A stretch of 64,000 nt of DNA from Bacteroidia bacterium (GCA_018000995.1 JAGNIU010000007.1:1-64000); one strand, 5' to 3'; shown: positions 8,178 through 32,585, counted from the first letter of the stretch. The notes: generated by a model from the sequence alone, not told the origin. Numbers and translations: made by a program.

Positions 8178-9707
8178 ATGAAGAAATTGATCCCCTTTTT
8201 ACTGGTATTTTTTGGTTTTCAAGCCGGTGCCCAGTACGCTTACGAGATAAAAATTAACGTTAAAGGCTTCCCCGATTCGGTAGCTTATCTTGCTAAATAC
8301 ACTTTTGGTAAGCAATATATTGTCGACACCTGCAAAACAGCATGGAAAGGAAATATTGTATTTAAAGGAAAAACTGAGTTGGATAAGGGAATGTATTTCT
8401 TAGCCAGTTTAGATAAAGAAGGAAAAGCCATTCACCGTTTCGATTTTGTTATTGATGACAGCTTTAAATTCGCGCTTACTTCTGATATGGCGGATTTACA
8501 ATACAATCTTAAAAGTGTAGGTTCAAAAGAGAATGAAGAATTTTTTAACTATGCGCGTTTCTATGTAGATAAAAACAAAGAATTTACCGGTTTAGCTCCT
8601 AAAACAAAGGGTATGAATAAAGCGGATTCAGCAAAGTTCATGCAAGACAAAGCAAAAACGTTTACCGAAGAGGTTGTAAAATTTGAAGCCGATTTTATTA
8701 AGAAGAATGAAGGTACTTTTTTAGGCGCTTGGTTAAATTTAAGAACTGAAAAGGAAGCGAAAACTTACCCTGCTGGTTTAAAAAACAGAAATGACAGTAC
8801 TATGTACCGCTTTAATTATTATAAAAGTCATTATTGGGATGGTGTAGATTTTAAAGATGGTAGAATTATTCGTAATCAGTTTTTTGATTCGAGGTTGAAA
8901 AAATATTTTGAGCAAATAGTTAATCAATTAGGTCCGGATACAGTAGCAAATGAAATCGATAAAATTTTATCGCAATGCGAGCCGGGCACTGAGTTATTTA
9001 ATTTCTTGTTTGTTCATTTTATGGTGGAGTACGAAAATCCAAAATTGGTTGGCTTCGATAAAGTGTTTGTGATGTTGGTAGATAAATACATTCGTACCGG
9101 TAAATCAGGAAAAATTTACGATGAAAAAACAACTACAAAAATTGTTGAGAAAGCCGATATCATCAAACCTTTATTAATTGGTTCAGTGGCACCTGATTTA
9201 TATATGATTGATACGGTGAATGCGAAAATTGTAAATAAAATGGGTTTTGATACTGCCTCTACAAGCGAATCGATTACGAAACTGTATTATAAAAATATGG
9301 ATAAGCTAGCACCGCTTTACAAAACTCTATCATCGGTACAAGCTAAATACATTGTGTTGGTGTTTTGGGATGTAGATTGTAGTCATTGTGTGACTGAAAT
9401 CCCGAAACTACTAGAAATTTATCACGATTTAAGAAAGACTGTAGACGTAAAAGTATTTTCGGTTTATACAGTGTATGAATTTGATAAATGGAGGAAATAC
9501 ATCATCGACAAAAAATTGGATTTCATAAATGTATATGACCCGGTTCATATAAATAATATAAAAACCAAATACGATATTTTCTCAACTCCAAAAGTGTATT
9601 TACTCGATAAAAACAAAATCATAAAGTCGAAACACATGCCGGTAGAAAAAATTACAGATTTAATAAAAGCGTTTGAAGAAGAAGAAAAGGCAAAGAAGCC
9701 AAAGTAA
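8178..9707 (+). CDS. DUF-domain + TlpA-like thioredoxin-fold thiol:disulfide oxidoreductase
   Basis: 509 aa; signal peptide; C-terminal thioredoxin fold with CxxC (VLVFWDVDCSHCV); tandem paralog of next gene. Confidence 0.65.
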   Translation: MKKLIPFLLVFFGFQAGAQYAYEIKINVKGFPDSVAYLAKYTFGKQYIVDTCKTAWKGNIVFKGKTELDKGMYFLASLDKEGKAIHRFDFVIDDSFKFALTSDMADLQYNLKSVGSKENEEFFNYARFYVDKNKEFTGLAPKTKGMNKADSAKFMQDKAKTFTEEVVKFEADFIKKNEGTFLGAWLNLRTEKEAKTYPAGLKNRNDSTMYRFNYYKSHYWDGVDFKDGRIIRNQFFDSRLKKYFEQIVNQLGPDTVANEIDKILSQCEPGTELFNFLFVHFMVEYENPKLVGFDKVFVMLVDKYIRTGKSGKIYDEKTTTKIVEKADIIKPLLIGSVAPDLYMIDTVNAKIVNKMGFDTASTSESITKLYYKNMDKLAPLYKTLSSVQAKYIVLVFWDVDCSHCVTEIPKLLEIYHDLRKTVDVKVFSVYTVYEFDKWRKYIIDKKLDFINVYDPVHINNIKTKYDIFSTPKVYLLDKNKIIKSKHMPVEKITDLIKAFEEEEKAKKPK

Positions 9708-21845: not shown

Positions 21846-22394
21846 TTATTTTTTATAAGGATAATTCCTGTTTTTAGGAATATTATTCACTATCATAGCT
21901 ATCACAAATAAAATCGCCACACCTGTCATTACCGGTGAAAGGATATAAGTGAATCCTAAATTTTTAATTTTTTCAGAACCAATATTAGCAATTAAAGCGG
22001 TTGCCCCACCGGGAGGATGCATCGTTTTTGTGATTTGCATCGCAACAATAGAAAGTGAAACAGAAAGAGCAGAAGACAGCCACAACATATCAGGAATCAT
22101 TTTATAAATACAAACTCCAATTATTGCCGAAATTAAATGCCCGCCAATTAAATTGCGAGGTTGTGCCAGCGGACTATTAGTCGCCCCAAATATTAAAACA
22201 GCGGTGGCGCCAAAAGAACCAATTAAGAAAATATTATCGTACTCGGTAAATTGTTTGCTTTGAATAAAACCTATGGCAGCAATTCCTAAAAAGGCACCTA
22301 TAAAAGTCCAGAGATGATCTAGTGGCTCAAGAAGCGTTTCTTTGTACACAACATATTTAGCAAGGCGGTAAGTCCGCTTAATTTTTTGCTTCAT
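21846..22394 (-). CDS. HPP family membrane protein
   Basis: 182 aa; 4 TM; MHPPGGATALIA motif. Confidence 0.75.
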   Translation of the reverse strand: MKQKIKRTYRLAKYVVYKETLLEPLDHLWTFIGAFLGIAAIGFIQSKQFTEYDNIFLIGSFGATAVLIFGATNSPLAQPRNLIGGHLISAIIGVCIYKMIPDMLWLSSALSVSLSIVAMQITKTMHPPGGATALIANIGSEKIKNLGFTYILSPVMTGVAILFVIAMIVNNIPKNRNYPYKK

Positions 22395-22412
22395 GTTGTA
22401 AAGGTACAGATT

Positions 22413-23165
22413 TTACTTTAGTCGTTTCACTTCTATCATCCAATCCCATGGATAAGGTTTTCCTAATCCTTTTGGTGGCGATGCAAATTCAGAATCCCAT
22501 CCAAATTCAATTTTCTTAATCGCCTCGATTGAGAAATTAGCGTTGTTAAATAAAGTATAAAGTTCTTGCAATAAATAATGTTTTGTGGGGTGACCATCAA
22601 TTGCCACAATTCCGTTTTGTACCCAATCTAAACTAAAATGTTTTGGATTGAGTTCGTCTTTCGGAATTTTATTAATCTTAACGCCATCTTTTTTATACAT
22701 TTTCAATAACTGCATAAATGCTAAAGAAGCAGATTCGTAAGAAGGAATAACAATAACAGCAGCACCGCCTTTTTTTAAACCACTTACTACAGTATTTAAA
22801 ATGGCGTAATTCTTTTTGTTATCATCACAAATAGCAACATTACAACAATAGGCAAAATCTACTTTAGGAATACTTTGCGGTTTGGTCAGGTCGCCTTGTT
22901 TTAAGGTAACGTTCTTTAATTTTAATTTAGCGGCTTGGTCTAATAACTTTTGCGAGATATCAATGCCAATCACGCTTTTAAAATTAGGAGCTAAAAAGGG
23001 TAGAGCATAACCGATACCGCAACCGAAATCAACAGCCGTTTTATTTTTACCAATATGTTTAGCAATGTGTTTTTTTACGACACCTTTTTTATCGGAATGC
23101 AATACGCTAAAAATTTCTTTATCGTAATTATAACCTACGGTATCCCAAACTATTTTCTCGTTCAT
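22413..23165 (-). CDS. class I SAM-dependent methyltransferase
   Basis: 250 aa; motif I VDFGCGIGY. Confidence 0.65.
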   Translation of the reverse strand: MNEKIVWDTVGYNYDKEIFSVLHSDKKGVVKKHIAKHIGKNKTAVDFGCGIGYALPFLAPNFKSVIGIDISQKLLDQAAKLKLKNVTLKQGDLTKPQSIPKVDFAYCCNVAICDDNKKNYAILNTVVSGLKKGGAAVIVIPSYESASLAFMQLLKMYKKDGVKINKIPKDELNPKHFSLDWVQNGIVAIDGHPTKHYLLQELYTLFNNANFSIEAIKKIEFGWDSEFASPPKGLGKPYPWDWMIEVKRLK

Positions 23166-23212
23166 AAAATATTATTGTTTTACTAAGGTAATAAAGTAAA
23201 TGAATTATGCAA

Positions 23213-23396
23213 AGGGAGAGAGGAGTTGAGTTTTAAACCTTCTGCAATCTAACCCCTCTAACATCCGCCTTTGGCGGATTAGGCTTTCTCCCCTTAAAAA
23301 AGGGGAGAAGTTTTTTTTGGAGTACGAATAAAATTCTCCCCCTTTTTTAAGGGGGAGTACCCGCAGGGGGAGGGGGTTAGTTTTTGAACTCAACCT
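23213..23396. repeat. GC-rich nested palindromic intergenic element (about 185 bp) with C5TT..AAG5 hairpins
   Basis: Outer imperfect IR ggagttgagtttt / aaaactcaacc; inner hairpins atccgcctttggcggat, ctccccttaaaaaaggggag, ctcccccttttttaagggggag; overlaps last codons and stop of GNAT gene. Confidence 0.65.
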
Positions 23397-23904
23397 TCTT
23401 TATCTGATAAATAAAGTTCAGATTAGAGTCCTCACCAAAATATTCTATTTCCTCTTCTGCAATTTTAACAGCACCAATTTTTTCAATAGCTCTTTGTGAA
23501 CGGATATTTTTTGCGCCAATATGAAATATCACATTATCTACAAACTGAAAAGCATATTGCATCATCAAGTGCTTACAACTTGGATTATATTTACCGCCCC
23601 AATGCGAGCGGGCGTAAAATGTATAACCAATAGCCACTGTACTTTTTTCTAAATCCCAATCATAAAAACGGGAACTGCCTATTGGCTCGTTGGTTTTTGC
23701 ATCGTAAATTAAAAATGCACCTTTGCTTTCTATCGCACCTTTAAAAAAGTTTTGAAATACTTCGCGTTGCCAGCGATTTTTGTTGGGATGTTGTTCCCAA
23801 ATTAATGGGTCGCTTGCTACTTTGTACAAAATTTCAAAATCAGTTTCTTTTAAAGGAACCAGTTTTACAAATTCATTTTCAAGTGTAGGTTGAATATTTT
23901 CCAA
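23377..23904 (-). CDS. GNAT family N-acetyltransferase (RimJ/RimL-like)
   Basis: 175 aa; acetyl-CoA binding region (IGAKNIRSQRAIEKIGA). Confidence 0.7.
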   Translation of the reverse strand: MENIQPTLENEFVKLVPLKETDFEILYKVASDPLIWEQHPNKNRWQREVFQNFFKGAIESKGAFLIYDAKTNEPIGSSRFYDWDLEKSTVAIGYTFYARSHWGGKYNPSCKHLMMQYAFQFVDNVIFHIGAKNIRSQRAIEKIGAVKIAEEEIEYFGEDSNLNFIYQIKKVEFKN

Positions 23905-23906
23905 TC

Positions 23907-24383
23907 TTATTTTTTCTTAATAGGTATCCAAATCTCTTCTTCAGAATCAGGATCGTTGTTTTTGTAGTTGGGGCCTAATATTTCAAAATGCGGACGGTTA
24001 TCTAAAGTGTATTCTGATTTTGGCAACCATTCTGAAAAAATATAATTAAAAATGCTTGAATCAGTATTTAAACCTTTGTAATGGAATACTGCATACAAAC
24101 CTTCGGGCAAATTAAATATTTCCATACCCTCAGGAATAGAATTGGAATCACTCACTTCCAATAATGCCCATTTTTCAAATTCGTTATTGGGATTAAAAGC
24201 TTTAAAATAATTGGCATCATAAGTTTGTAAAGAAAATAGATCACTGCCAATTACATTCTTAATTTCATTTCGTCTAAGCATAAAACTTTTCCATAGCTCG
24301 CCTGTTTTGTTATTGGCTAAGCTCATGGTAATGCGGTTACCAATTAAAGTTTTTGAAGAAAGTGATTTTATTTCAGGCTGCAT
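23907..24383 (-). CDS. GyrI-like small-molecule-binding domain protein
   Basis: 158 aa; fold pattern of AraC-effector/GyrI-like proteins; 3-bp gap to GNAT gene. Confidence 0.5.
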   Translation of the reverse strand: MQPEIKSLSSKTLIGNRITMSLANNKTGELWKSFMLRRNEIKNVIGSDLFSLQTYDANYFKAFNPNNEFEKWALLEVSDSNSIPEGMEIFNLPEGLYAVFHYKGLNTDSSIFNYIFSEWLPKSEYTLDNRPHFEILGPNYKNNDPDSEEEIWIPIKKK

Positions 24384-24417
24384 ACATTTGATTTAAATCA
24401 ATTCAAATGTAATAATT

Positions 24418-24606
24418 TTATTTTTTTCCCTTTGATTTGCCTTTTGTATGTCCGGGATTAGTAGTTGCAGGGTGATGAGGGTTATTCCTGTTTTTAGTCC
24501 AGCCTTTACGTTGTCCATTGTCTGTTCTAACAACTAAACAAGAGGTTTGGCTAAGCATAAGTGCTGCGGTAATGGTAATGCCTAGTATGGCTTTAAGTGC
24601 TTTCAT
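24418..24606 (-). CDS. small basic His/Pro-rich lipoprotein (hypothetical)
   Basis: 62 aa; lipoprotein signal (LMLSQTSC); short, so low confidence. Confidence 0.35.
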   Translation of the reverse strand: MKALKAILGITITAALMLSQTSCLVVRTDNGQRKGWTKNRNNPHHPATTNPGHTKGKSKGKK

Positions 24607-24760
24607 TAAAATGTTTTAGGTAATGTAAATGTGACTTAATTAAATGTAAGCAAAAGGAAGCACAACTCGGACTAATATAGACCGGGGGCATGAAAGGCTC
24701 GATGTAATTGTGTAAGTAAATAGAGTTTTTAGAGCTTTAAGACGAATAACCTATTATCAG

Positions 24761-25099
24761 TTATTTCAAAAATTCGCCATCTACAATTAATAGTCTAACA
24801 CCATTCTCTGAATAAGAACGATGAGAACTTAAATTATCAGATACCACATAACTTTCGCCTTTGTGGAGTTTTTGTTTCTCTCCGGTTTTTAATTCGGTAA
24901 TGAAATCTCCTTCTAAACAATGCACCACGTGACCTTTCTCACACCAATGGTCGGCTAAGTAACCTGCGCCATATTCTACAATACGAATTCTTAAACCGCC
25001 TAATTGAACGGTTTGCCAAGTGGAAGTTCCTGTTTCTCCTTTGTGTTCTGTTTTTTCGATGCTTGACCAGTCGATGGTTGTGAAGGGGATAGTTTTCAT
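24761..25099 (-). CDS. DHCW-motif cupin fold protein
   Basis: 112 aa; contains literal DHWCEKGHVVHC motif of the DHCW cupin family. Confidence 0.65.
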   Translation of the reverse strand: MKTIPFTTIDWSSIEKTEHKGETGTSTWQTVQLGGLRIRIVEYGAGYLADHWCEKGHVVHCLEGDFITELKTGEKQKLHKGESYVVSDNLSSHRSYSENGVRLLIVDGEFLK

Positions 25100-25111
25100 T
25101 GTAAATTTATT

Positions 25112-26071
25112 TTAGCAATAGCGTGCGTTATAAATGAACCAGATATTTAATACAAGATAAATAATTATTAGCAGATTGGAAGCGATTTTATCAAAACGCT
25201 GCATTTCTTCCACTTTATTTTTTTTAAGGAGTGATAAAGAAAATGCAGAACAAATCACAATAGCGAGGATAAAAAGCAAGGCCAACCCGTGAAGTGTGTC
25301 CACTAAGGTAAATGTAGTTGACTCCGGCAAGGCAGAATCCACAACATACTTATTACCAATAACACCAAATAAGGAACCAATGCTTAAACCAAAACGCGAT
25401 TCAATGCTATCACGGTGAATGAAGAAACACAGGAACGATAAAAGAACAGAAATAAACATTCCAATAAATAATTTAAGAAATAGCCACCAGGAATCTCTTT
25501 CGATGCCAATCTGCATTTTAAAGGCGCTGAATTTAGATTGAGGTTTTGCTAAGTCTTCATCTCCAAAACCGGTTTCATATTTTTTTTCGTAAGTAGTAAT
25601 ATTAAAGCTATCCGTAATAACACGCCAACCGGAAAGTGTCCATTTAGAATAATGTTGACCAACAGTATCTTCAACAAAAACTAAAGCATCTGAATCGTAT
25701 TGGGAATTCTCTATAGTAAATCTTAGTTTCTGTTTATCGAATGGGAAGTTGTCGATTTTCCAGGAGTCGCGCATAACACATTGCAGTTTCATCATCATGT
25801 AAATTCTGCCATCATCTAAAGTATCAATGGTGTAAAAAGATTTATCCACTTCTTTCGCCATTGGCACTTCCAAAAATTTAGAGAAATCAAATTCAACATT
25901 CCTGTATTTTAACCAAAGCCAAAGGTTAATAGTGTATTGTTTCTCTCTGAAATCAATATCGTGAATGCTATTGATATAAACACCAACAGTAACGGTATCC
26001 GGATGTTTAGCTTCTTTAGAGAAAGAGGATTGAAAAACGAATAGGAGTAAAAGAGAAAGTAATTTCTTCAT
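25112..26071 (-). CDS. prokaryotic pentameric ligand-gated ion channel (Cys-loop receptor family) homolog
   Basis: 319 aa; signal peptide; about 200-aa beta-rich ectodomain with VTVGVYINSIHDIDFREKQYTINLWLWL and FPFDKQKL (Cys-loop-equivalent motif); pre-M1 Arg; four TM helices with M3-M4 loop; size matches GLIC/ELIC. Confidence 0.7.
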   Translation of the reverse strand: MKKLLSLLLLFVFQSSFSKEAKHPDTVTVGVYINSIHDIDFREKQYTINLWLWLKYRNVEFDFSKFLEVPMAKEVDKSFYTIDTLDDGRIYMMMKLQCVMRDSWKIDNFPFDKQKLRFTIENSQYDSDALVFVEDTVGQHYSKWTLSGWRVITDSFNITTYEKKYETGFGDEDLAKPQSKFSAFKMQIGIERDSWWLFLKLFIGMFISVLLSFLCFFIHRDSIESRFGLSIGSLFGVIGNKYVVDSALPESTTFTLVDTLHGLALLFILAIVICSAFSLSLLKKNKVEEMQRFDKIASNLLIIIYLVLNIWFIYNARYC

Positions 26072-26086
26072 TTTTCGGGAACGCGA

Positions 26087-26827
26087 TTATTTTGTTTTTA
26101 TATAAATGTGTTTGATGTTTCTATTGCCGGTTTCACGTTGATCAATTTCGAAACGGTTTGTGCTTTTTATAAGGGGTAATAGTTTTGTAAAACCATAATT
26201 CCTCGGATCAAAATCAGTTTTCTTTTTCAAGATAAAACTTCCTAATTCTCCTAAAAAGGTCCAGCCGCTTTCGTCTGCTAAATCTATTACGCTTTCTGTT
26301 AATAATCGTATCAAAGCTTCATCAACTCTGTTTAAAGGAGCGCTTTCTGTTTTTACTTTATTTGGTTTGCCCGATTCTTTTGTCGCAGATTTAGCAGATT
26401 TCAGAATTTCTATATAAACAAATTTATCACAAGCTTTAATAAATGGTGAAGGTGTTTTTTTCTCACCAATGCCAATCACTTTCATGCCGGCTTCTCTTAA
26501 TCGTGTAGCGAGCCTTGTAAAATCACTGTCGCTCGACACTATACAAAAACCATCAACTTTTTCTGAATATAAAATATCCATCGCGTCAATTATCAGTGCA
26601 CTATCGCTTGAGTTCTTTCCTGTGGTGTAGCTGTATTGTTGAATAGGAGTGATGGCGTTTTCAAGCAACACATTTTTCCATCCTGAAAGAGTAGGGCGGG
26701 TCCAATCGGCGTAAATTCTTTTTATAGTGGGGGTTCCGCTTATTGCAATCTCTTCTAACATTTCTTTAATGTGAGAATAGGGTACATTATCAGCGTCAAT
26801 TAAAACAGCAAGGCGTAGGTCGGTCAT
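26087..26827 (-). CDS. NYN-domain (LabA-like) protein with C-terminal OST-HTH/LOTUS domain
   Basis: 246 aa; NYN PIN-like core (LAVLIDADNV..DSALIIDAMD..IVSSDSDFTRLATRLREAGMKVIGIG); C-terminal about 80-aa helical OST-HTH-like region. Confidence 0.75.
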   Translation of the reverse strand: MTDLRLAVLIDADNVPYSHIKEMLEEIAISGTPTIKRIYADWTRPTLSGWKNVLLENAITPIQQYSYTTGKNSSDSALIIDAMDILYSEKVDGFCIVSSDSDFTRLATRLREAGMKVIGIGEKKTPSPFIKACDKFVYIEILKSAKSATKESGKPNKVKTESAPLNRVDEALIRLLTESVIDLADESGWTFLGELGSFILKKKTDFDPRNYGFTKLLPLIKSTNRFEIDQRETGNRNIKHIYIKTK

Positions 26828-26936
26828 TTTCTTTAAATTTATTTCAGTTTCTAATAAGATTTAGAAGGTGAAGTTTAAAGATACGTCTTAAAGAGGCGGA
26901 TTGCAAATGGGTGACAATAGTAATATTCTTTAAAAT

Positions 26937-27692
26937 TTACCCGCCATGTCGGCCACAGCGACCCGTGGTTGTCATAGCTCTGCATTGTTCTGAGTCTCTG
27001 GATGTGTGTGATCTTGCATGCGGAGGAATATAATCGTAAGCAGAACAACGTCTTTTTGGTTTGCCTGCATCTAATGAGTCTTGTATATGCTTTAACCAAC
27101 GCATCCGTATTTCAGCACGTTTAGCTTTCATTAAAAGGGAATCTTTATATGTATCAAATCCCACCGTGTCGCTTACCTTACCATTACACACATCCCTGAA
27201 ATACGAAAACTGCCAACTAAGATTGTTGTCAGAATTAATTCTGTACGATTGAAATTTTTCTTCACACGCAGGATCTCCACTTCTGTAATTTCCATCTTCA
27301 GTTATACAATCACACATACTTGGTCCGGGTGAAGAAGTAAATACTTTCATCGGGTCGGCATTCAAAAGTTTAAATTGTTGTTCGGCGCCGGGTAGACAAA
27401 ACCATTCGCTTTTTATAAATTCATCATAGCTTGTAGTAGATGGAATGTTTTTTTCTTGCTGACGATAACGATATAATGAATACAACCAATTGTCCCACAA
27501 AGAAACGGTATCAACAGCCTCTTTATTTTTAATGAGGAACAAACCTAATTCACGATTGTAGCTAATGGAGTAGGGACCGGGCGCGGAACTTAATAATAAA
27601 TCATCGGCTGAGGGTTGGCTACAGGATACTAATAAAACAGAAACAAGAATTGAAAACTGTTTCAGAAATTTTGTGAAGGGGATTTTGTTCAT
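26937..27692 (-). CDS. hypothetical Cys-rich secreted lipoprotein
   Basis: 251 aa; lipoprotein signal (LLVSCSQP); many Cys in C-terminal half; no recognisable family. Confidence 0.4.
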   Translation of the reverse strand: MNKIPFTKFLKQFSILVSVLLVSCSQPSADDLLLSSAPGPYSISYNRELGLFLIKNKEAVDTVSLWDNWLYSLYRYRQQEKNIPSTTSYDEFIKSEWFCLPGAEQQFKLLNADPMKVFTSSPGPSMCDCITEDGNYRSGDPACEEKFQSYRINSDNNLSWQFSYFRDVCNGKVSDTVGFDTYKDSLLMKAKRAEIRMRWLKHIQDSLDAGKPKRRCSAYDYIPPHARSHTSRDSEQCRAMTTTGRCGRHGG

Positions 27693-27781
27693 TTAATGTT
27701 TCTGGTTTAAGGTTTCGTGTTTCTGTTTTAAGAATTTTGCCTATGAATTAGAAGTATGAATTTATACTAGTTAACGGTTTG

Positions 27782-27888
27782 CGGCTTGGCGTTGTGCGGG
27801 TTTTCGGAGAAGAATTTGTCGGCAAGACAAATGCTTATTTGGAAACCTGCACTTCATTTTACTTGAATACCCGCATAACGCCAAGCCG
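27782..27888. repeat. GC-rich 20-bp inverted repeat (cggcttggcgttgtgcgggt / acccgcataacgccaagccg) with inner hairpin
   Basis: 20/21 complementary arms separated by about 67 bp containing atttgtcggcaagacaaat hairpin; lies just 3' of the OLD-like gene. Confidence 0.55.
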
Positions 27889-27901
27889 TTGTTATGCCCA
27901 G

Positions 27902-29674
27902 TTATTTAAATTTTACAATATCATCTGTCGTTATTCCTTGGTCTGAACTTAAAGAAACTTCAAAAGCTGGTAAAAAGTCTACAGAAGATTCAATAGTCAA
28001 TTTGAAAGTGCTTTTATTCCAATCTAATGTCTTTAAAGAAAATAATTGATCAATTTTTAACTCTTGATATTTTGAAATTTTCGACAATGCCTCTGTACTT
28101 GCTGGTCTTTCCTCTAAAATAATGGATTGAATTTTGGCCAACACTTTAATAATTTCACTTCGCATAAATTTCGTATTATCAAAAGTGTCAAATATTATAG
28201 ATTGAATAAAAGCTAATAGTGTGGCATATCGCTTCTCTACATCAGCTCTGTCCTCAGTTTTTAGCAATTCATATTCAATATCAAATAATTTAATTTTTTC
28301 CTTGTCATCATCAGGACTTACTGGTGTCGATTGATAAAATGTTTCTAAGGAACCTGTCGGAATAATAAAAAATCCAGCTTTAGACAATATGGATATGGAA
28401 AATGAAGTGGAATCAACAAGCAAATCAATTACGGGATCTAATTTCGAATTTTGCAGTATGGCTTTTGTTAAGGCAGGATATTTATTTATTAATTCTAAAG
28501 TTAAGCTTTTCGAATTATCTGTTTTCTTTTTAATTCTGTAAAGATGAGGATATATATTATTTCCCGAATCAGTTGTTTTAAAATGCGCATCATCTACTTT
28601 TATCAATTCTTCTAATAAATTCCCTAAATTATCTCTAATATTTTTGCTAACATAATCTTGAATATTTGTTGCTATTGCTGAAAGTTCTTTAATTACGATT
28701 GGATGATTATTAAATTTGTCTAATAATTTACTTTCAATTAAACAGTCTAAGTCGCCAATGTAAAACGAAGGTTTAGCAATTGCTTGACAGAGTAAATGTA
28801 GGGTTGAAAAGTCATCCTTTCCTCCAGTTTCTACAATACTAAAATCATTTCTACTGATGTCAATATCGCATTTTTCTAGGACTTTCTTAAAGATTACTTT
28901 GTCACGAAATCCCTCACAAAAAACTACACCTTTTGAATGAACTAATAGCCACTTTTCGGAGTCAAGTCTAAGCAAACTTTTCTCTAAGTGTATTTTTTGT
29001 CCAGGTGTTAAAGTTGTGAAATCAGGTTTTGTTCCACCTAACACTTGCGGGTCAGAAAAAAAAGTTGCTTGTTCTAATTCCTCAATCGACTCAGGGGCAA
29101 AGAATATCGGTGAATGAGTCGCCAACCAAAATTCAATATTTTTTTCTTTTATAAGTCGAAGCATTTCATTTTTTAAAAATCTTTGGGCTTCTGGATGTAA
29201 CGAAAGTTCTGGTTCGTCAATAAAATATTTTTTAGATAAGCCTGAATTGATAAATGTCAAAATTATTAGCAACTCTCTAAGACCAGAGCTTTCACCTTCA
29301 AAATCGTATCGAGGAATCGACACTGTCTCAAAAAAATCATTGTCAAGTCCAGACGTTACCTTAAAATTTTGTGTTCGTTCAATAATTTCTAAGGAAAAAT
29401 TACGGCCAAGCTTTCTCGATAATATTTGAAACACAGTATATCTCAGTTTTGCGTTGTCTCGCAATAACGACATTGCAACTTGGTCGGGATGGGTTTTACT
29501 ATATTGTAAAAATTGCGAAGTAAATTCTTTGGTTTGAGAATCATTAAACTGTTTAACGTTGTTTGTTCTTTGTTTCGGAACATAAAACCCTCTATTGTCT
29601 TCACAAAGCTTACTAAGGGCTCTTGTCTTTCCAGTTCCATTTGGTCCAACTAAATAATGGATGTTTTTTTTCAT
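27902..29674 (-). CDS. ABC-type ATPase fused to TOPRIM-like (OLD family / DUF4435-like) nuclease domain; candidate anti-phage defence protein
   Basis: 590 aa; Walker A GPNGTGKT, signature-like ESSGLRELL, Walker B YFIDEPELSLHP, H-loop LATHSP; then VVFCEGFRDK..VETGGKDDF..YIGDLDCLIESK (E..DxD TOPRIM-like); about 250-aa helical C-terminus. Confidence 0.6.
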   Translation of the reverse strand: MKKNIHYLVGPNGTGKTRALSKLCEDNRGFYVPKQRTNNVKQFNDSQTKEFTSQFLQYSKTHPDQVAMSLLRDNAKLRYTVFQILSRKLGRNFSLEIIERTQNFKVTSGLDNDFFETVSIPRYDFEGESSGLRELLIILTFINSGLSKKYFIDEPELSLHPEAQRFLKNEMLRLIKEKNIEFWLATHSPIFFAPESIEELEQATFFSDPQVLGGTKPDFTTLTPGQKIHLEKSLLRLDSEKWLLVHSKGVVFCEGFRDKVIFKKVLEKCDIDISRNDFSIVETGGKDDFSTLHLLCQAIAKPSFYIGDLDCLIESKLLDKFNNHPIVIKELSAIATNIQDYVSKNIRDNLGNLLEELIKVDDAHFKTTDSGNNIYPHLYRIKKKTDNSKSLTLELINKYPALTKAILQNSKLDPVIDLLVDSTSFSISILSKAGFFIIPTGSLETFYQSTPVSPDDDKEKIKLFDIEYELLKTEDRADVEKRYATLLAFIQSIIFDTFDNTKFMRSEIIKVLAKIQSIILEERPASTEALSKISKYQELKIDQLFSLKTLDWNKSTFKLTIESSVDFLPAFEVSLSSDQGITTDDIVKFK

Positions 29675-29785
29675 TTTATTGTCTGTCTATATAATTGGGC
29701 ATAACTAGTGGATAAGCGCCACAAACAAATATTTACAAACGGTTATAAATATTTAAAGTGCTTTCCAATAATAAATATACAAAAT

Positions 29786-31012
29786 TTACTCCTCCTTTGG
29801 TTGTAGCTTATGGATTTTTTTAGTTCCGGCGTACATTTCGAATTTAAAGAGGCGGCATTCGAGAGAGCCGTTGAAGAGTGTTATTTTACGGGTAGGGCGG
29901 AGGCCAATATATTTTGCAGCTTCTAAATTAGACGTTATAATCCAACAGGTCCAACCACTAAAATCTTTTTTAAGTTTGTCGCCAATTTGTTTGTAGAAGG
30001 AAGCAATGTCTTCGTGTTTCATCCGCTCATCGTAAGGCGGGTTCAATAACACAGTGCCCATTGGTTTGTCAACCTTCATATCAAAAAAGGATTTGCGGCT
30101 GAATTGTATAGCGTCATCCACTTTTGCAACGGCAACATTTATTTTTGCAACGTTTAAACTTTTATCGGATAAATCGTTCGCTACAATATTCGGCATGTCT
30201 TCTTTAATGCGGCTTATTGCAGATTCGTAAATGGTATCGTATAATTTCTCGTCGTAATTTTTCCAACGCATGAAACCAAATTCTTTTCTGAAAATTCCCG
30301 CAGGAATATTTCCGGCAAACAATGCGGCTTCAATAGCTAAAGTTCCACTACCACACATACCATCAATCAAAGGTAAATGCGGTTGCCATCCTGAGATGAG
30401 TACAATTCCAGCTGCTAAAACTTCTTTAATCGGTGCTTCAATAATATCTTCACGGTAACCGCGCTTGTATAAAATATCGCCACTGCTATCTAAACTCACA
30501 CTCACATCATCTTTAAAAATGTGAACATAAATACGAAGCGTCGGCGCTTTTAAATCCACACTCGGACGTAAATCACCACTTATCTCTCTGAATCTATCGC
30601 AAATCGCATCTTTGGTTTTTTGCTCAACATATAAACTATGCTGAAAAAATTCCGAATTCGGTACACCTTCAACAGCGAGTGTATCCGTCACCTTCATAAA
30701 ATCATCCCAAGGAAATTTTTTAATACCGTCGTATAATTCCTGATCGCTCGTTGCTTTGAATTTGTAAATTGGAATCAAAACACGCAAAGCCACACGTGAA
30801 CATAAATTCACTTTGTACATGTAACCGATATCACCCTTTACAGAAACACCACGTTTAAATGGTTCAATGTCTTTACCGCCTAAACGTAATAATTCAGCTG
30901 CCAATACTTCTTCGAGTCCGAAAAAGGTTGTCACCTTCATTTCAAAATCGCCGGTAGTATTAAAATCGAAGTTTATTTTTTTGGGAGCAAGGTTTAGGTC
31001 GGGGGTATCCAT
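29786..31012 (-). CDS. THUMP-domain class I SAM-dependent RNA (m2G) methyltransferase, RlmL/RlmK N-terminal-like
   Basis: 408 aa; THUMP region then DGMCGSGTLAIEAAL (motif I) and NPPYDERM (motif IV). Confidence 0.75.
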   Translation of the reverse strand: MDTPDLNLAPKKINFDFNTTGDFEMKVTTFFGLEEVLAAELLRLGGKDIEPFKRGVSVKGDIGYMYKVNLCSRVALRVLIPIYKFKATSDQELYDGIKKFPWDDFMKVTDTLAVEGVPNSEFFQHSLYVEQKTKDAICDRFREISGDLRPSVDLKAPTLRIYVHIFKDDVSVSLDSSGDILYKRGYREDIIEAPIKEVLAAGIVLISGWQPHLPLIDGMCGSGTLAIEAALFAGNIPAGIFRKEFGFMRWKNYDEKLYDTIYESAISRIKEDMPNIVANDLSDKSLNVAKINVAVAKVDDAIQFSRKSFFDMKVDKPMGTVLLNPPYDERMKHEDIASFYKQIGDKLKKDFSGWTCWIITSNLEAAKYIGLRPTRKITLFNGSLECRLFKFEMYAGTKKIHKLQPKEE

Positions 31013-31058
31013 TGTTTTTGATTGAGGTGTAAAGGTAGGGAAATTTATGGAAAGTGGG

Positions 31059-31124
31059 GCTTCGGCTACGCTCAGCCACCACTATGTCTTACGGGCGCAC
31101 CGGTGCCTGAGCGGAGTCGAAGGC
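31059..31124. repeat. palindromic unit of GCTGAGC..GTCGAAG repeat family (variant copy)
   Basis: gcttcggctacgctcagcc .. cctgagcggagtcgaaggc inverted pair; read through by the spurious N-terminal extension of the 31047 ORF. Confidence 0.55.
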
Positions 31125-31160
31125 ACACTAGATATCTTAATTTTTCCTATATTCGATACG

Positions 31161-32585
31161 ATGAAAAGAATGTTTTTTGTATATACGATTTTGGTGCTGG
31201 TTTTTTTATCGCTTGATGTTAAAAGTAAGACCACTCAAGCGGAAATGGATAGTGTAAAAAACGTTTACAGTAATTCTAAAGATCAATACGTGCGTGCCAG
31301 AGCAATGAACTGGATTATTACGCATTACCAGCAACAGTACGATTCAGCTTATTATTATTTACAAGTGGCGGTGCAGGGTTTTAAGCTTAGCAATTATAAG
31401 TTTGGTGAGGCCTGGGCCAAGCATTCGTTTGGTATTTCTTGTGTTGAAAATGCACATTATGAAGACGCAAAAAAATATTTAAATGAGGCTATAGCTGAGT
31501 ACGCATCAATGGGAAATGATTCCATGATAGGGAAAGCAAAAATTAGAGTTGCATTCACACATTATTCTCAAGGTAATTATGAAGCTTCTATCAAAACTTA
31601 TCTTGAGGCTGTTGAGTCTGCACAAAAAGCTAAAGATCTTTATACAGAAGCCTGGGCTTATAATTTGTTGGGTCTGGTATTATATAATAAACCAACTCCT
31701 GATAACAAATTAGCACTGGAATACTATAATAAGTCGCTCGATATTCATAGGAAAAAGAATAATATACAGGGTTTTGGTATGGTGATGATGCGGATGGGTT
31801 CCGCTTATTCAAGACTTGGTGATGATGCCAACGCCATTTATTATTTAAACAGGGCCATGGCACTTGGTGATAGTTTAGAACAGGGTTTTCTGGTTAAGTG
31901 GACTTTGTCTGCCTATTCAAAATATTACATGGAGCGGAAAGACTATTTAAAATCGAACGAAATTGAAAAGCGCGCAAAATATTTATCACTTGATGCCGGT
32001 GATTTTCCGGGTGTAATTATTTCTTACAAAAATATAGCTTCAAATAATTATAATTTAAAAGATTATAAGTTGGCATTAGTAAACATTGACAGCGCATTAT
32101 ATTATAGTACAAAACATGGCGTTTTACAAAAGATTGATGAGATATATGAGATAAAATCCGACATCCATCATAAGCTCGGACAAACCGAAGAAGCTTTGGT
32201 TTGTTATAAGAGATCGGTAGCCTTACGTGATTCATTATTTTCGATTAAGAATAATAATAACATAAACGAATTACAAACCCGCTTTGAGACCAATGAAAAG
32301 GAAAAAGCAATTGAGTTATTGAATAGTGAAAAAGAAAGCGAGAGAAAAGTAAGAAATGTTTTATTGGGAGCATTCATTGTTGCGCTTCTATTGATTGCAT
32401 TAATTGTATTCGCACTAATTAAAATTAACAAGGCAAGAAAAGAAATTCAACATCAAAAAAAGATAGTCGATCAAAAACAAAAAGAAGTTATGGATTCGAT
32501 TAATTACGCCACACGAATTCAAAAAGCCTTAATGCCTACTGAGAAGTATATTGAGAAAATATTAAATAAGAATAGGAAAAATTGA
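31161..32585 (+). CDS. TPR-repeat membrane protein, truncated at onset of a SpoIIE/PP2C-type phosphatase domain
   Basis: Start at ATG 31161 (MKRMFFVYTILVLVFL signal); multiple TPRs; TM (LLGAFIVALLLIALIVFALI); coiled coil; ends ..INYATRIQKALMPTEKYIEKILNKNRKN right after the conserved I.YA.RIQ.A.LP entry motif. Confidence 0.55.
   Translation: MKRMFFVYTILVLVFLSLDVKSKTTQAEMDSVKNVYSNSKDQYVRARAMNWIITHYQQQYDSAYYYLQVAVQGFKLSNYKFGEAWAKHSFGISCVENAHYEDAKKYLNEAIAEYASMGNDSMIGKAKIRVAFTHYSQGNYEASIKTYLEAVESAQKAKDLYTEAWAYNLLGLVLYNKPTPDNKLALEYYNKSLDIHRKKNNIQGFGMVMMRMGSAYSRLGDDANAIYYLNRAMALGDSLEQGFLVKWTLSAYSKYYMERKDYLKSNEIEKRAKYLSLDAGDFPGVIISYKNIASNNYNLKDYKLALVNIDSALYYSTKHGVLQKIDEIYEIKSDIHHKLGQTEEALVCYKRSVALRDSLFSIKNNNNINELQTRFETNEKEKAIELLNSEKESERKVRNVLLGAFIVALLLIALIVFALIKINKARKEIQHQKKIVDQKQKEVMDSINYATRIQKALMPTEKYIEKILNKNRKN

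Follow-up and report, generated by a model that had tools for sequence, protein, structure and literature searches.

Genes packed head to tail on one strand raise the question of whether their products work together, and this question is posed by a locus in a 64,000-nucleotide (nt) stretch of DNA from a Bacteroidia bacterium (GCA_018000995.1 JAGNIU010000007.1:1-64000; hereafter the window, in which all positions are counted). [quoted passage not shown] The answer has two parts. The ORF at 25112-26071 is a genuine Cys-less (Pro-loop) pLGIC subunit by sequence and predicted fold. It is very probably a stand-alone channel, whose packing with the NYN and cupin genes is a lineage-specific by-product of gene turnover in the slot between rlmL and a backbone of shared genes, and not a functional system. 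The locus genes are on the minus strand, where the ORFs named in the sequence-only reading were all found at the positions that it gave (Table 1).

The identity of the channel is borne out by Pfam, by matches to sequences in the PDB, and by an AlphaFold2 model compared with Foldseek. The Pfam family Neur_chan_LBD was found above its gathering score in the window protein, and precomputed annotations assign it to nearly all listed homologs as well. A phmmer search of PDB sequences matched the channel to a GLIC-GlyR chimera (E = 2.4e-11), to GlyR alpha (~1e-10 to 1e-9), and to GABA-A and GluCl; the single-sequence match to GLIC had an E of ~1e-4, and a profile of the channel family aligned full-length to GLIC (positions 22-312, E ~1e-9). 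The AlphaFold2 model, a monomer prediction built on a 33-sequence alignment, has a mean predicted local distance difference test score (pLDDT) of 80 and a predicted TM-score (pTM) of 0.62, and shows an N-terminal helix, beta strands at residues 25-193 (DSSP), and four long helices. Structural similarity to pLGICs, on which the sequence-only reading had staked its proposal, is clear: Foldseek returned 1,105 PDB matches at E<=1e-3, the best being GlyR alpha1 (TM-score 0.79, E = 1.3e-20), and the best 50 listed were all GlyR, GABA-A or GluCl chains. Full-length matches to these receptors had TM-scores of 0.74-0.80 at 14-20% sequence identity. Because the channel scores far under the curated cutoffs of NCBIfam NF033918 LGIC_1 (58.8 bits vs 500) and TIGR00860 LIC (63.8 vs 280.2), it is a divergent branch of the superfamily outside these subfamilies.

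The anatomy of the protein agrees with this assignment. Conservation was counted in a family alignment of 33 members, which are 59-90% identical to the window protein. FPFDKQ (residues 109-114), the pre-M1 Arg192, the four transmembrane helices and the short M3-M4 loop, all of which had been read from the sequence, are present; the beta1-beta2 motif is likewise there, although the spacing of the string first proposed was slightly off, the true sequence being VTVGVYINSIHDIDFREKQYTINLWLWL. The signal-peptide region is modelled as a helix (residues 2-14) followed by a low-pLDDT linker (15-21), and it is conserved in the family alignment. The Pro-loop F109-P110-F111-D112, Q114 and R192 are invariant in 33/33 members, and the Pro-loop Asp would pair with Arg192 as a salt bridge. 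Since the second cysteine of the Cys-loop is replaced by Leu116, there is no Cys-loop disulfide. Also invariant in the 33 members are W51 and W53 (loop D region), E68 and P70 (loop A region), E121-N122-S123 (loop B, with Y125 nearly invariant), Y165, T167, F169 and G170 (loop C), and G138 and H140 (loop F). The register of the pore helix M2 was taken from an ungapped alignment to GlyR M2. Counted in this way, M2 is acidic (Asp/Glu) in 33/33 members at both -2' and 19' (Asp in the window) and carries invariant residues at 0' (Arg226), 6' (Gly), 9' (Phe235) and 16' (Tyr), together with Gly at 13' in 32/33; position 2' varies among Ser, Asn, Gly and Thr. A basic residue at 0' is found in 79% of pLGICs, and Phe at 9' in 13% (PMC4795631). 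With FPFD, Arg192 and the 0' Arg, the protein has the elements that serve coupling in the superfamily.

These features suggest how the protein might work. Five identical subunits would form a homopentamer of the inner membrane whose ligand domain faces the periplasm, and a small periplasmic ligand would bind at the subunit interfaces; a ligand of this kind is suggested by invariant aromatic and polar residues in loops B, C and D. Binding would be coupled through the Pro-loop/pre-M1 interface to the opening of the M2-lined pore, whose hydrophobic gate would be the invariant 9' Phe. The acidic rings at -2' and 19' suggest that the channel is probably cation-selective.

Comparison with known channels places the protein more closely. 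Like GLIC, the proton-gated channel of Gloeobacter violaceus, it is a core-only protein (~317 aa in size) with a signal peptide, an extracellular domain (ECD), four transmembrane helices and a very short M3-M4 loop, and both have a Cys-less Pro-loop with (F/Y)PxD, the pre-M1 Arg and an acidic -2' residue in M2. GLIC is nevertheless a remote match: the ECD of the window channel is shorter, with deletions in beta2-beta3 and in the loop A region, and its pore has Phe instead of Ile at 9', Arg instead of Asn at 0', and Gly at 6' and 13'. Moreover, the strong conservation of loops B and C suggests a small-molecule ligand rather than protons, unlike in GLIC. The best structural and sequence matches are instead GlyR alpha, GABA-A and GluCl (TM-score 0.79 and E 1e-20 by structure; E 4e-10 by sequence), with which M1-M3 align ungapped, including the 0' Arg and the 'LP' motif between M2 and M3. 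Unlike these receptors, the window channel lacks a Cys-loop disulfide, an N-terminal helix and a long intracellular loop; it has Asp/Glu at -2' where anion-selective channels have Pro-Ala, and Phe instead of Leu at 9'. ELIC, sTeLIC, DeCLIC and other prokaryotic pLGICs, presumed homopentamers, are members of this superfamily too. The prokaryotic pLGICs, on record since 2004, are sporadic, laterally transferred and often lost genes (Tasneem et al. 2004, PMC549065), and some of them are fused to, or encoded beside, periplasmic binding protein (PBP) or Cache sensors (PMC549065). In contrast to those, the window channel has no fused PBP, Cache, MCP-N or N-terminal domain and no PBP-II or Cache operon partner.

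The channel has many relatives. Homologous proteins form 2,916 clusters in the protein database, the best 120 of which are 58-100% identical to the channel, and the source-named homologs among these 120 are all called 'hypothetical protein'. Relatives were found in the genomes of 529 GTDB species; of those listed, nearly all belong to Bacteroidota, among them Mucilaginibacter, Ferruginibacter, and metagenome-assembled genomes (MAGs) of Chitinophagaceae and Flavobacteriales. An exhaustive search of 50%-identity representatives collapses the clade into about one representative, surrounded by a continuum of core-only homologs about 320 aa in length (233 reach E<=1e-30, and 2,391 reach E<=1e-3). 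The channel clade is thus a tight, uncharacterised clade inside the known pLGIC radiation. It could conceivably, though this is an unlikely reading, be a chemoreceptor channel of distinct function whose ligand is conserved; its M2 has invariant Gly, Phe and Tyr at 6', 9' and 16'. A search of phage genomes gave no channel matches, and a search of plasmids gave distant homologs, 25-32% identical over 77-85% of the query; distant homologs of this kind lie on Azospirillum megaplasmids/chromids and Streptomyces plasmids and are called hypothetical proteins where annotated. Three contigs labelled as MAGs of Rhizobium sp., Methylophilus rhizosphaerae and Comamonas sp. (L010, L012 and L025) encode orthologs that share 67-72% identity with the window channel; they are probably mis-binned or mislabelled Bacteroidota contigs and not cases of cross-phylum transfer.

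We then asked whether the neighbours travel with the channel. All 15 proteins encoded at 17.8-32.6 kb of the window were compared by tblastn with 80 genome loci (channel 55-83% identical, flanks up to 8 kb) and 80 metagenome loci (53-73%) that carry channel orthologs. The sequence-only reading had named a lack of NYN-channel co-occurrence in related genomes as refuting its proposal, and by this test the proposed module fails: the NYN gene adjoins the channel in 0/160 of these loci, and it occurs once in the 80 genome loci, ~8 kb off (L020). The cupin adjoins the channel in 2/80 genome loci (L001, of the same lineage, and L063), the lipoprotein and OLD genes are found in none of the 80 genome loci, and none of the four is found in the 80 metagenome loci. 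Other genes do not take their place: no cluster of neighbours within 5 kb of the channel occurs in more than 8/80 loci, and when 163 loci are pooled, clustering of the 288 immediate neighbours gives 198 clusters, the largest of which, a response-regulator receiver, occurs in 7/163 loci on either side and on either strand. Only 57/288 immediate neighbours lie on the same strand within 100 bp of the channel. A Dph6-like ATP pyrophosphatase was considered as a partner and rejected: two close relatives have it beside the channel, but on opposite sides, and neither the window nor any other locus has it. No partner of the channel is conserved, and its gene stands alone.

How the genes came to be packed can be read from the closest relatives. 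Seven related haplotypes share the order rlmL, variable slot, cupin, (130 aa), GyrI-like, GNAT, methyltransferase, HPP, RluE, glycosyltransferase and RelA, and differ in the content of the slot. The window has OLD, lipoprotein, NYN and channel. L081 (channel 90% and RlmL 97% identical) has genes for proteins of 262, 149 and 213 aa, a Dph6-like gene and the channel, with no NYN and with the cupin following; L084/L085 (NYN 95%, cupin 94%) have GmrSD, four unknowns and NYN, with no channel. Contig P0127 (NYN 96%) has eight other genes, NYN, channel, Dph6-like, a 114-aa gene and a pentapeptide protein, so that the gene directly after the channel is the Dph6-like one and not the cupin. Contig P0130 (NYN 94%) has genes of 175 and 58 aa, NYN, and genes of 114 and 189 aa, with no channel. 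NYN, channel and OLD are all missing from L167/L168 (avidin-like, OsmC, lipoprotein at 79% identity, 114 aa, 388 aa) and from L169/L170 (six other genes, DUF4180, lipoprotein at 61%). Every partial combination occurs among these closest relatives, so that the four genes for NYN, channel, lipoprotein and OLD assort independently of one another. In each haplotype with DNA there, the slot is followed by the cupin (81-94% identical), whether or not a channel is present. In addition, an NYN homolog 84% identical to that of the window lies in an unrelated context (L086).

The junctions show the same pattern at nucleotide resolution. Aligned with L084, the window equals the L084 sequence plus a clean 987-bp insertion at 25100-26086, which stands between the TAA of NYN and the ATG of the cupin and comprises the channel together with its two spacers, of 15 nt before it and 12 nt after it. 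At L084 6738-6741 the NYN stop and the cupin start overlap as TAATG, and the point of channel insertion is codon-precise. Gene turnover between rlmL and the cupin-GyrI-GNAT backbone would have produced the head-to-tail packing of NYN, channel and cupin. As a further observation on this region, the rlmL-cupin interval is hypervariable and filled with co-oriented genes (seven haplotypes, seven contents), and whole-gene differences between near-identical genomes are seen for other cassettes of the slot as well.

Several points weigh against reading the channel as a stand-alone gene packed by turnover. Pentamer formation, ligand, gating and ion selectivity are all read from sequence or from a model. 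The NYN-channel adjacency recurs in P0127; as this contig belongs to the same lineage, its pair and that of the window count as one evolutionary event. The spacers between NYN stop and channel start (15 nt) and between channel stop and cupin start (12 nt) make co-transcription likely here, so that co-expression and some lineage-specific interplay are possible. Moreover, the 160 loci examined are drawn from more than 1,000 detectable ones, and L063 provides a single independent case of cupin-channel proximity among them, which is roughly at chance level but not zero.

It could be argued from the last point that channel and DHCW cupin are a functional pair, the cupin for example making or consuming the ligand of the channel. 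The channel does have the cupin directly after it in L001, in L081 and in the window. In addition L063, which is an unrelated MAG of Chitinophagaceae, carries both genes on one strand at positions 1114-2649: a DHCW cupin (68% identical) is encoded upstream, and 240 bp separate it from the channel (57% identical). However, the order in L063 is thereby reversed and the gap wide, and one independent recurrence in ~160 loci is near chance (rough estimate ~0.1). The cupin is absent from 158/160 other channel loci, does not follow the channel in P0127, and holds the same backbone position in the channel-less haplotypes L084/L085 and L167-L170. Furthermore, it lacks a signal peptide, whereas the ligand site is periplasmic. 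We therefore regard a channel-cupin pair as very unlikely; the DHCW cupin is a stable backbone gene of the region and not a partner of the channel.

A slightly less likely idea is that NYN and channel, with or without the cupin, make up a functional unit recently assembled in this lineage, for example one that couples membrane-potential or ion signalling to RNA turnover. Such a coupling stays conceivable given the second occurrence of the pair, in one sister contig, and the likely co-transcription; judged by their spacing, NYN, channel and cupin are plausibly co-transcribed in this genome. The sequence-only reading had let this transcription unit begin with the lipoprotein gene, which does not fit: NYN and lipoprotein are separated by a 109-nt gap and by a terminator-like hairpin at the lipoprotein stop (26941-26961), which makes membership of the lipoprotein in the NYN transcript doubtful, and the lipoprotein is probably a transcription unit of its own. 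Searches for promoters and terminators were uninformative on operon structure, with 19 sigma-70-type matches against 20.5 expected by chance and no enrichment of the Bacteroidetes -7 motif TAnnTTTG, which is missing from the relevant intergenic gaps.

The proposal of a sensor-effector or abortive-infection system, in which the channel would sense or execute membrane depolarisation and the NYN protein would degrade RNA, with or without the cupin and together with the OLD-like gene, is highly improbable. In its favour are the tight co-directional packing, the pair in P0127, the OLD-like gene 1.8 kb upstream, and GmrSD in the same slot of L084, so that the neighbourhood does attract defence genes. 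There is also a precedent for a channel plus a nuclease. In CorA-NrN of the type III-B CRISPR system of Bacteroides fragilis, a pentameric membrane channel stands beside a nuclease/phosphodiesterase in a Bacteroidota defence locus (PMC10600005). The CorA-NrN linkage, however, is conserved across taxa and sometimes takes the form of a fusion, CorA senses a cytoplasmic nucleotide signal, and the genes lie in cas loci (PMC10600005), whereas NYN and pLGIC are linked in one lineage only, the pLGIC has its sensor in the periplasm, and no enzyme that would generate a signal lies nearby. The ligand domain of the channel faces the periplasm, whereas the NYN protein has no signal peptide and is expected in the cytoplasm. 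The absence of NYN beside the channel in all 160 loci largely refutes the proposal, and NYN and channel each occur without the other in near-identical relatives (L081; L084/L085; P0130). The supposed link to defence fares no better, as OLD is missing from every related haplotype, including P0127 with its NYN-channel pair. PADLOC matched the OLD-like gene alone among the genes of interest, with no match for NYN, channel, cupin or lipoprotein; channel copies are lacking in phages and distant in plasmids. Finally, the NYN protein, at 78-96% identity over hundreds of clusters, is far too highly conserved for a typical defence effector, and NYN+OST-HTH proteins had previously been found without conserved neighbourhoods (PMC2848206).

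That the slot is an integron-like cassette array (a cluster of attC sites lacking integrase, CALIN, or a sedentary integron) with the channel as a mobile gene cassette is scarcely credible, for although small, variable, co-oriented genes of cassette-typical classes (GNAT, GyrI/Cass2, cupin, orphans), gene-precise insertions and deletions, a 107-nt imperfect inverted repeat (27782-27888) and a hairpin (23287-23356) would suit it, the 12-15-nt junctions are too short for attC sites, cassette-junction hairpins were not seen in L081, L167 or L169 (in a search made without a dedicated attC model), the two hairpins of the window share no sequence relationship, R''/R' cores are matched by the ends of the 107-nt element only with mismatches, that element is absent from all 170 related loci, and no integrase is found in any locus listed.

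Table 1. Features of the channel gene and its surroundings (positions in the window; aa, amino acids)
Feature	Position	Strand	Basis
DHCW-motif cupin, 112 aa	24761-25099	-	NCBIfam NF038084, 164.6 bits vs cutoff 70, E 5.8e-49, profile positions 2-106/106
Channel subunit, 319 aa	25112-26071	-	Pfam Neur_chan_LBD (PF02931), 31.7 bits vs gathering score 26
Predicted Sec signal peptide, channel residues 1-19, MKKLLSLLLLFVFQSSFSK	26015-26071	-	Read from sequence
Periplasmic beta-sandwich ligand-binding domain, residues 24-193	25493-26002	-	DSSP strands, family conservation, alignment to GLIC ECD
Pro-loop F109-P110-F111-D112	25736-25747	-	Family conservation
Transmembrane domain M1-M4, helices 195-217, 220-247, 256-283, 287-318	25118-25489	-	AlphaFold2
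Pore helix M2	25331-25414	-	Ungapped alignment to GlyR M2
NYN+OST-HTH/LOTUS protein, 246 aa	26087-26827	-	Pfam NYN 8e-40, 137.1 bits vs 24.2; OST-HTH 2e-18, 66.4 bits vs 23.8
Cys-rich lipoprotein, 251 aa	26937-27692	-	Lipobox L-V-S-C24 + 8 further conserved Cys
OLD-like ATPase-TOPRIM gene	27902-29674	-	Pfam OLD-like_TOPRIM, 40 bits vs 23.2; AAA_15, 36.8 vs 32.1
Variable slot between rlmL (29786-31012) and backbone cupin	25100-29785	-	Comparison of seven related haplotypes

The neighbours are of interest in their own right. The identities first given to the NYN/OST-HTH protein, the DHCW cupin and the lipoprotein were confirmed by Pfam, by NCBIfam and by the lipobox with its conserved Cys (Table 1). 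Homologs of the NYN+OST-HTH protein are numerous (>8,000 matches), the top 120 clusters being 78-100% identical, and the acidic motifs IDADN and SSDSDF of the NYN (LabA/DUF88, LK-nuclease) domain are visible, as expected of an active NYN nuclease. Bacterial LK-nuclease+OST-HTH proteins were described as having no conserved gene neighbourhoods and as probably stand-alone enzymes of RNA degradation (Anantharaman et al. 2010, PMC2848206), and the window protein has the same stereotyped architecture and likewise no conserved neighbourhood. Judged by these features, it is an independent, highly conserved RNase of a housekeeping type and not a conserved partner of the channel. The lipoprotein is a near-orphan of restricted lineage, with 3 clusters among 5.8 billion (5.8e9) proteins, and its homologs always lie in the same slot; the gene is real, since nine Cys (the lipobox Cys24 and eight more) and a strictly conserved basic C-terminus, EQCRAMTT(T/S)GRC(G/R)RHGG, are conserved. 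No paralogs were found among the genes of the window, and proteins 100% identical to those of the locus are annotated in a Bacteroidia MAG (locus tags KA163_05310 and KA163_05320).

The OLD-like gene is plausibly an independently acquired defence gene, carried as cargo of the slot and without a link to the channel. It matched Old, GajA, PtuA and AriA in PADLOC at 1e-10 to 1e-13 and, because all four match, was not assigned to a subtype; its GC content at third codon positions (GC3, 0.23) is the lowest of the region. An 18-nt inverted repeat, GTTATGCCCAGTTATTTA (27891-27908) and TATATAATTGGGCATAAC (29688-29705), brackets the ORF almost exactly; it may delimit a cassette that was inserted, or its position may be due to chance. 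The rlmL-proximal position of the slot holds defence genes in two haplotypes, OLD-like in the window and GmrSD in L084.

Other elements of the region were seen in passing. The 107-nt element, situated after the stop of OLD and before the start of the lipoprotein gene, has 24-nt terminal inverted repeats (GGCTTGGCGTTGTGCGGG) with one mismatch between the arms and a folding energy of -45.8 kcal/mol (z = -5.0); no Rfam family matched it, no further copy was found in the window or in the 170 related loci, and it could be a relic resembling a miniature inverted-repeat transposable element (MITE), a terminator or an insertion scar. The hairpin at 23287-23356 is GC-rich, has arms of 28-30 nt and lies directly downstream of GNAT, with sub-threshold, miRNA-like Rfam matches; at the equivalent position after GNAT, L084 has a different inverted-repeat element of 129 nt (9263-9391). 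An Rfam scan of 22000-32000 gave merely sub-threshold, miRNA-like matches to a generic hairpin. A 62-aa ORF at 24418-24606 has a signal- or lipobox-like N-terminus (…LMLSQTSC) and a very basic tail rich in Pro, His and Lys; it matched no family, and L001 has a copy of it, at 50% identity, after the cupin region.

In summary, what is new here is an uncharacterised member, and with it an uncharacterised clade, of a known channel superfamily, in a genomic context that is ordinary and not conserved. A signalling or defence module of channel and nuclease would have mattered if true, and it does not hold up; the locus is instead a cautionary example, in which genes packed like an operon in a variable slot of the genome give the appearance of a functional module. 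Its remaining value lies in the channel itself, which represents a large, tightly conserved clade of pLGICs in at least 529 Bacteroidota species, including culturable Mucilaginibacter. The conserved binding loops and the unusual M2, lined by Gly, Phe and Tyr, add to the usefulness of this clade. Because not one bacterial pLGIC has a known role in vivo (Jaiteh et al. 2016, PMC4795631), a clade that occurs in genetically tractable soil bacteria could help to find one.

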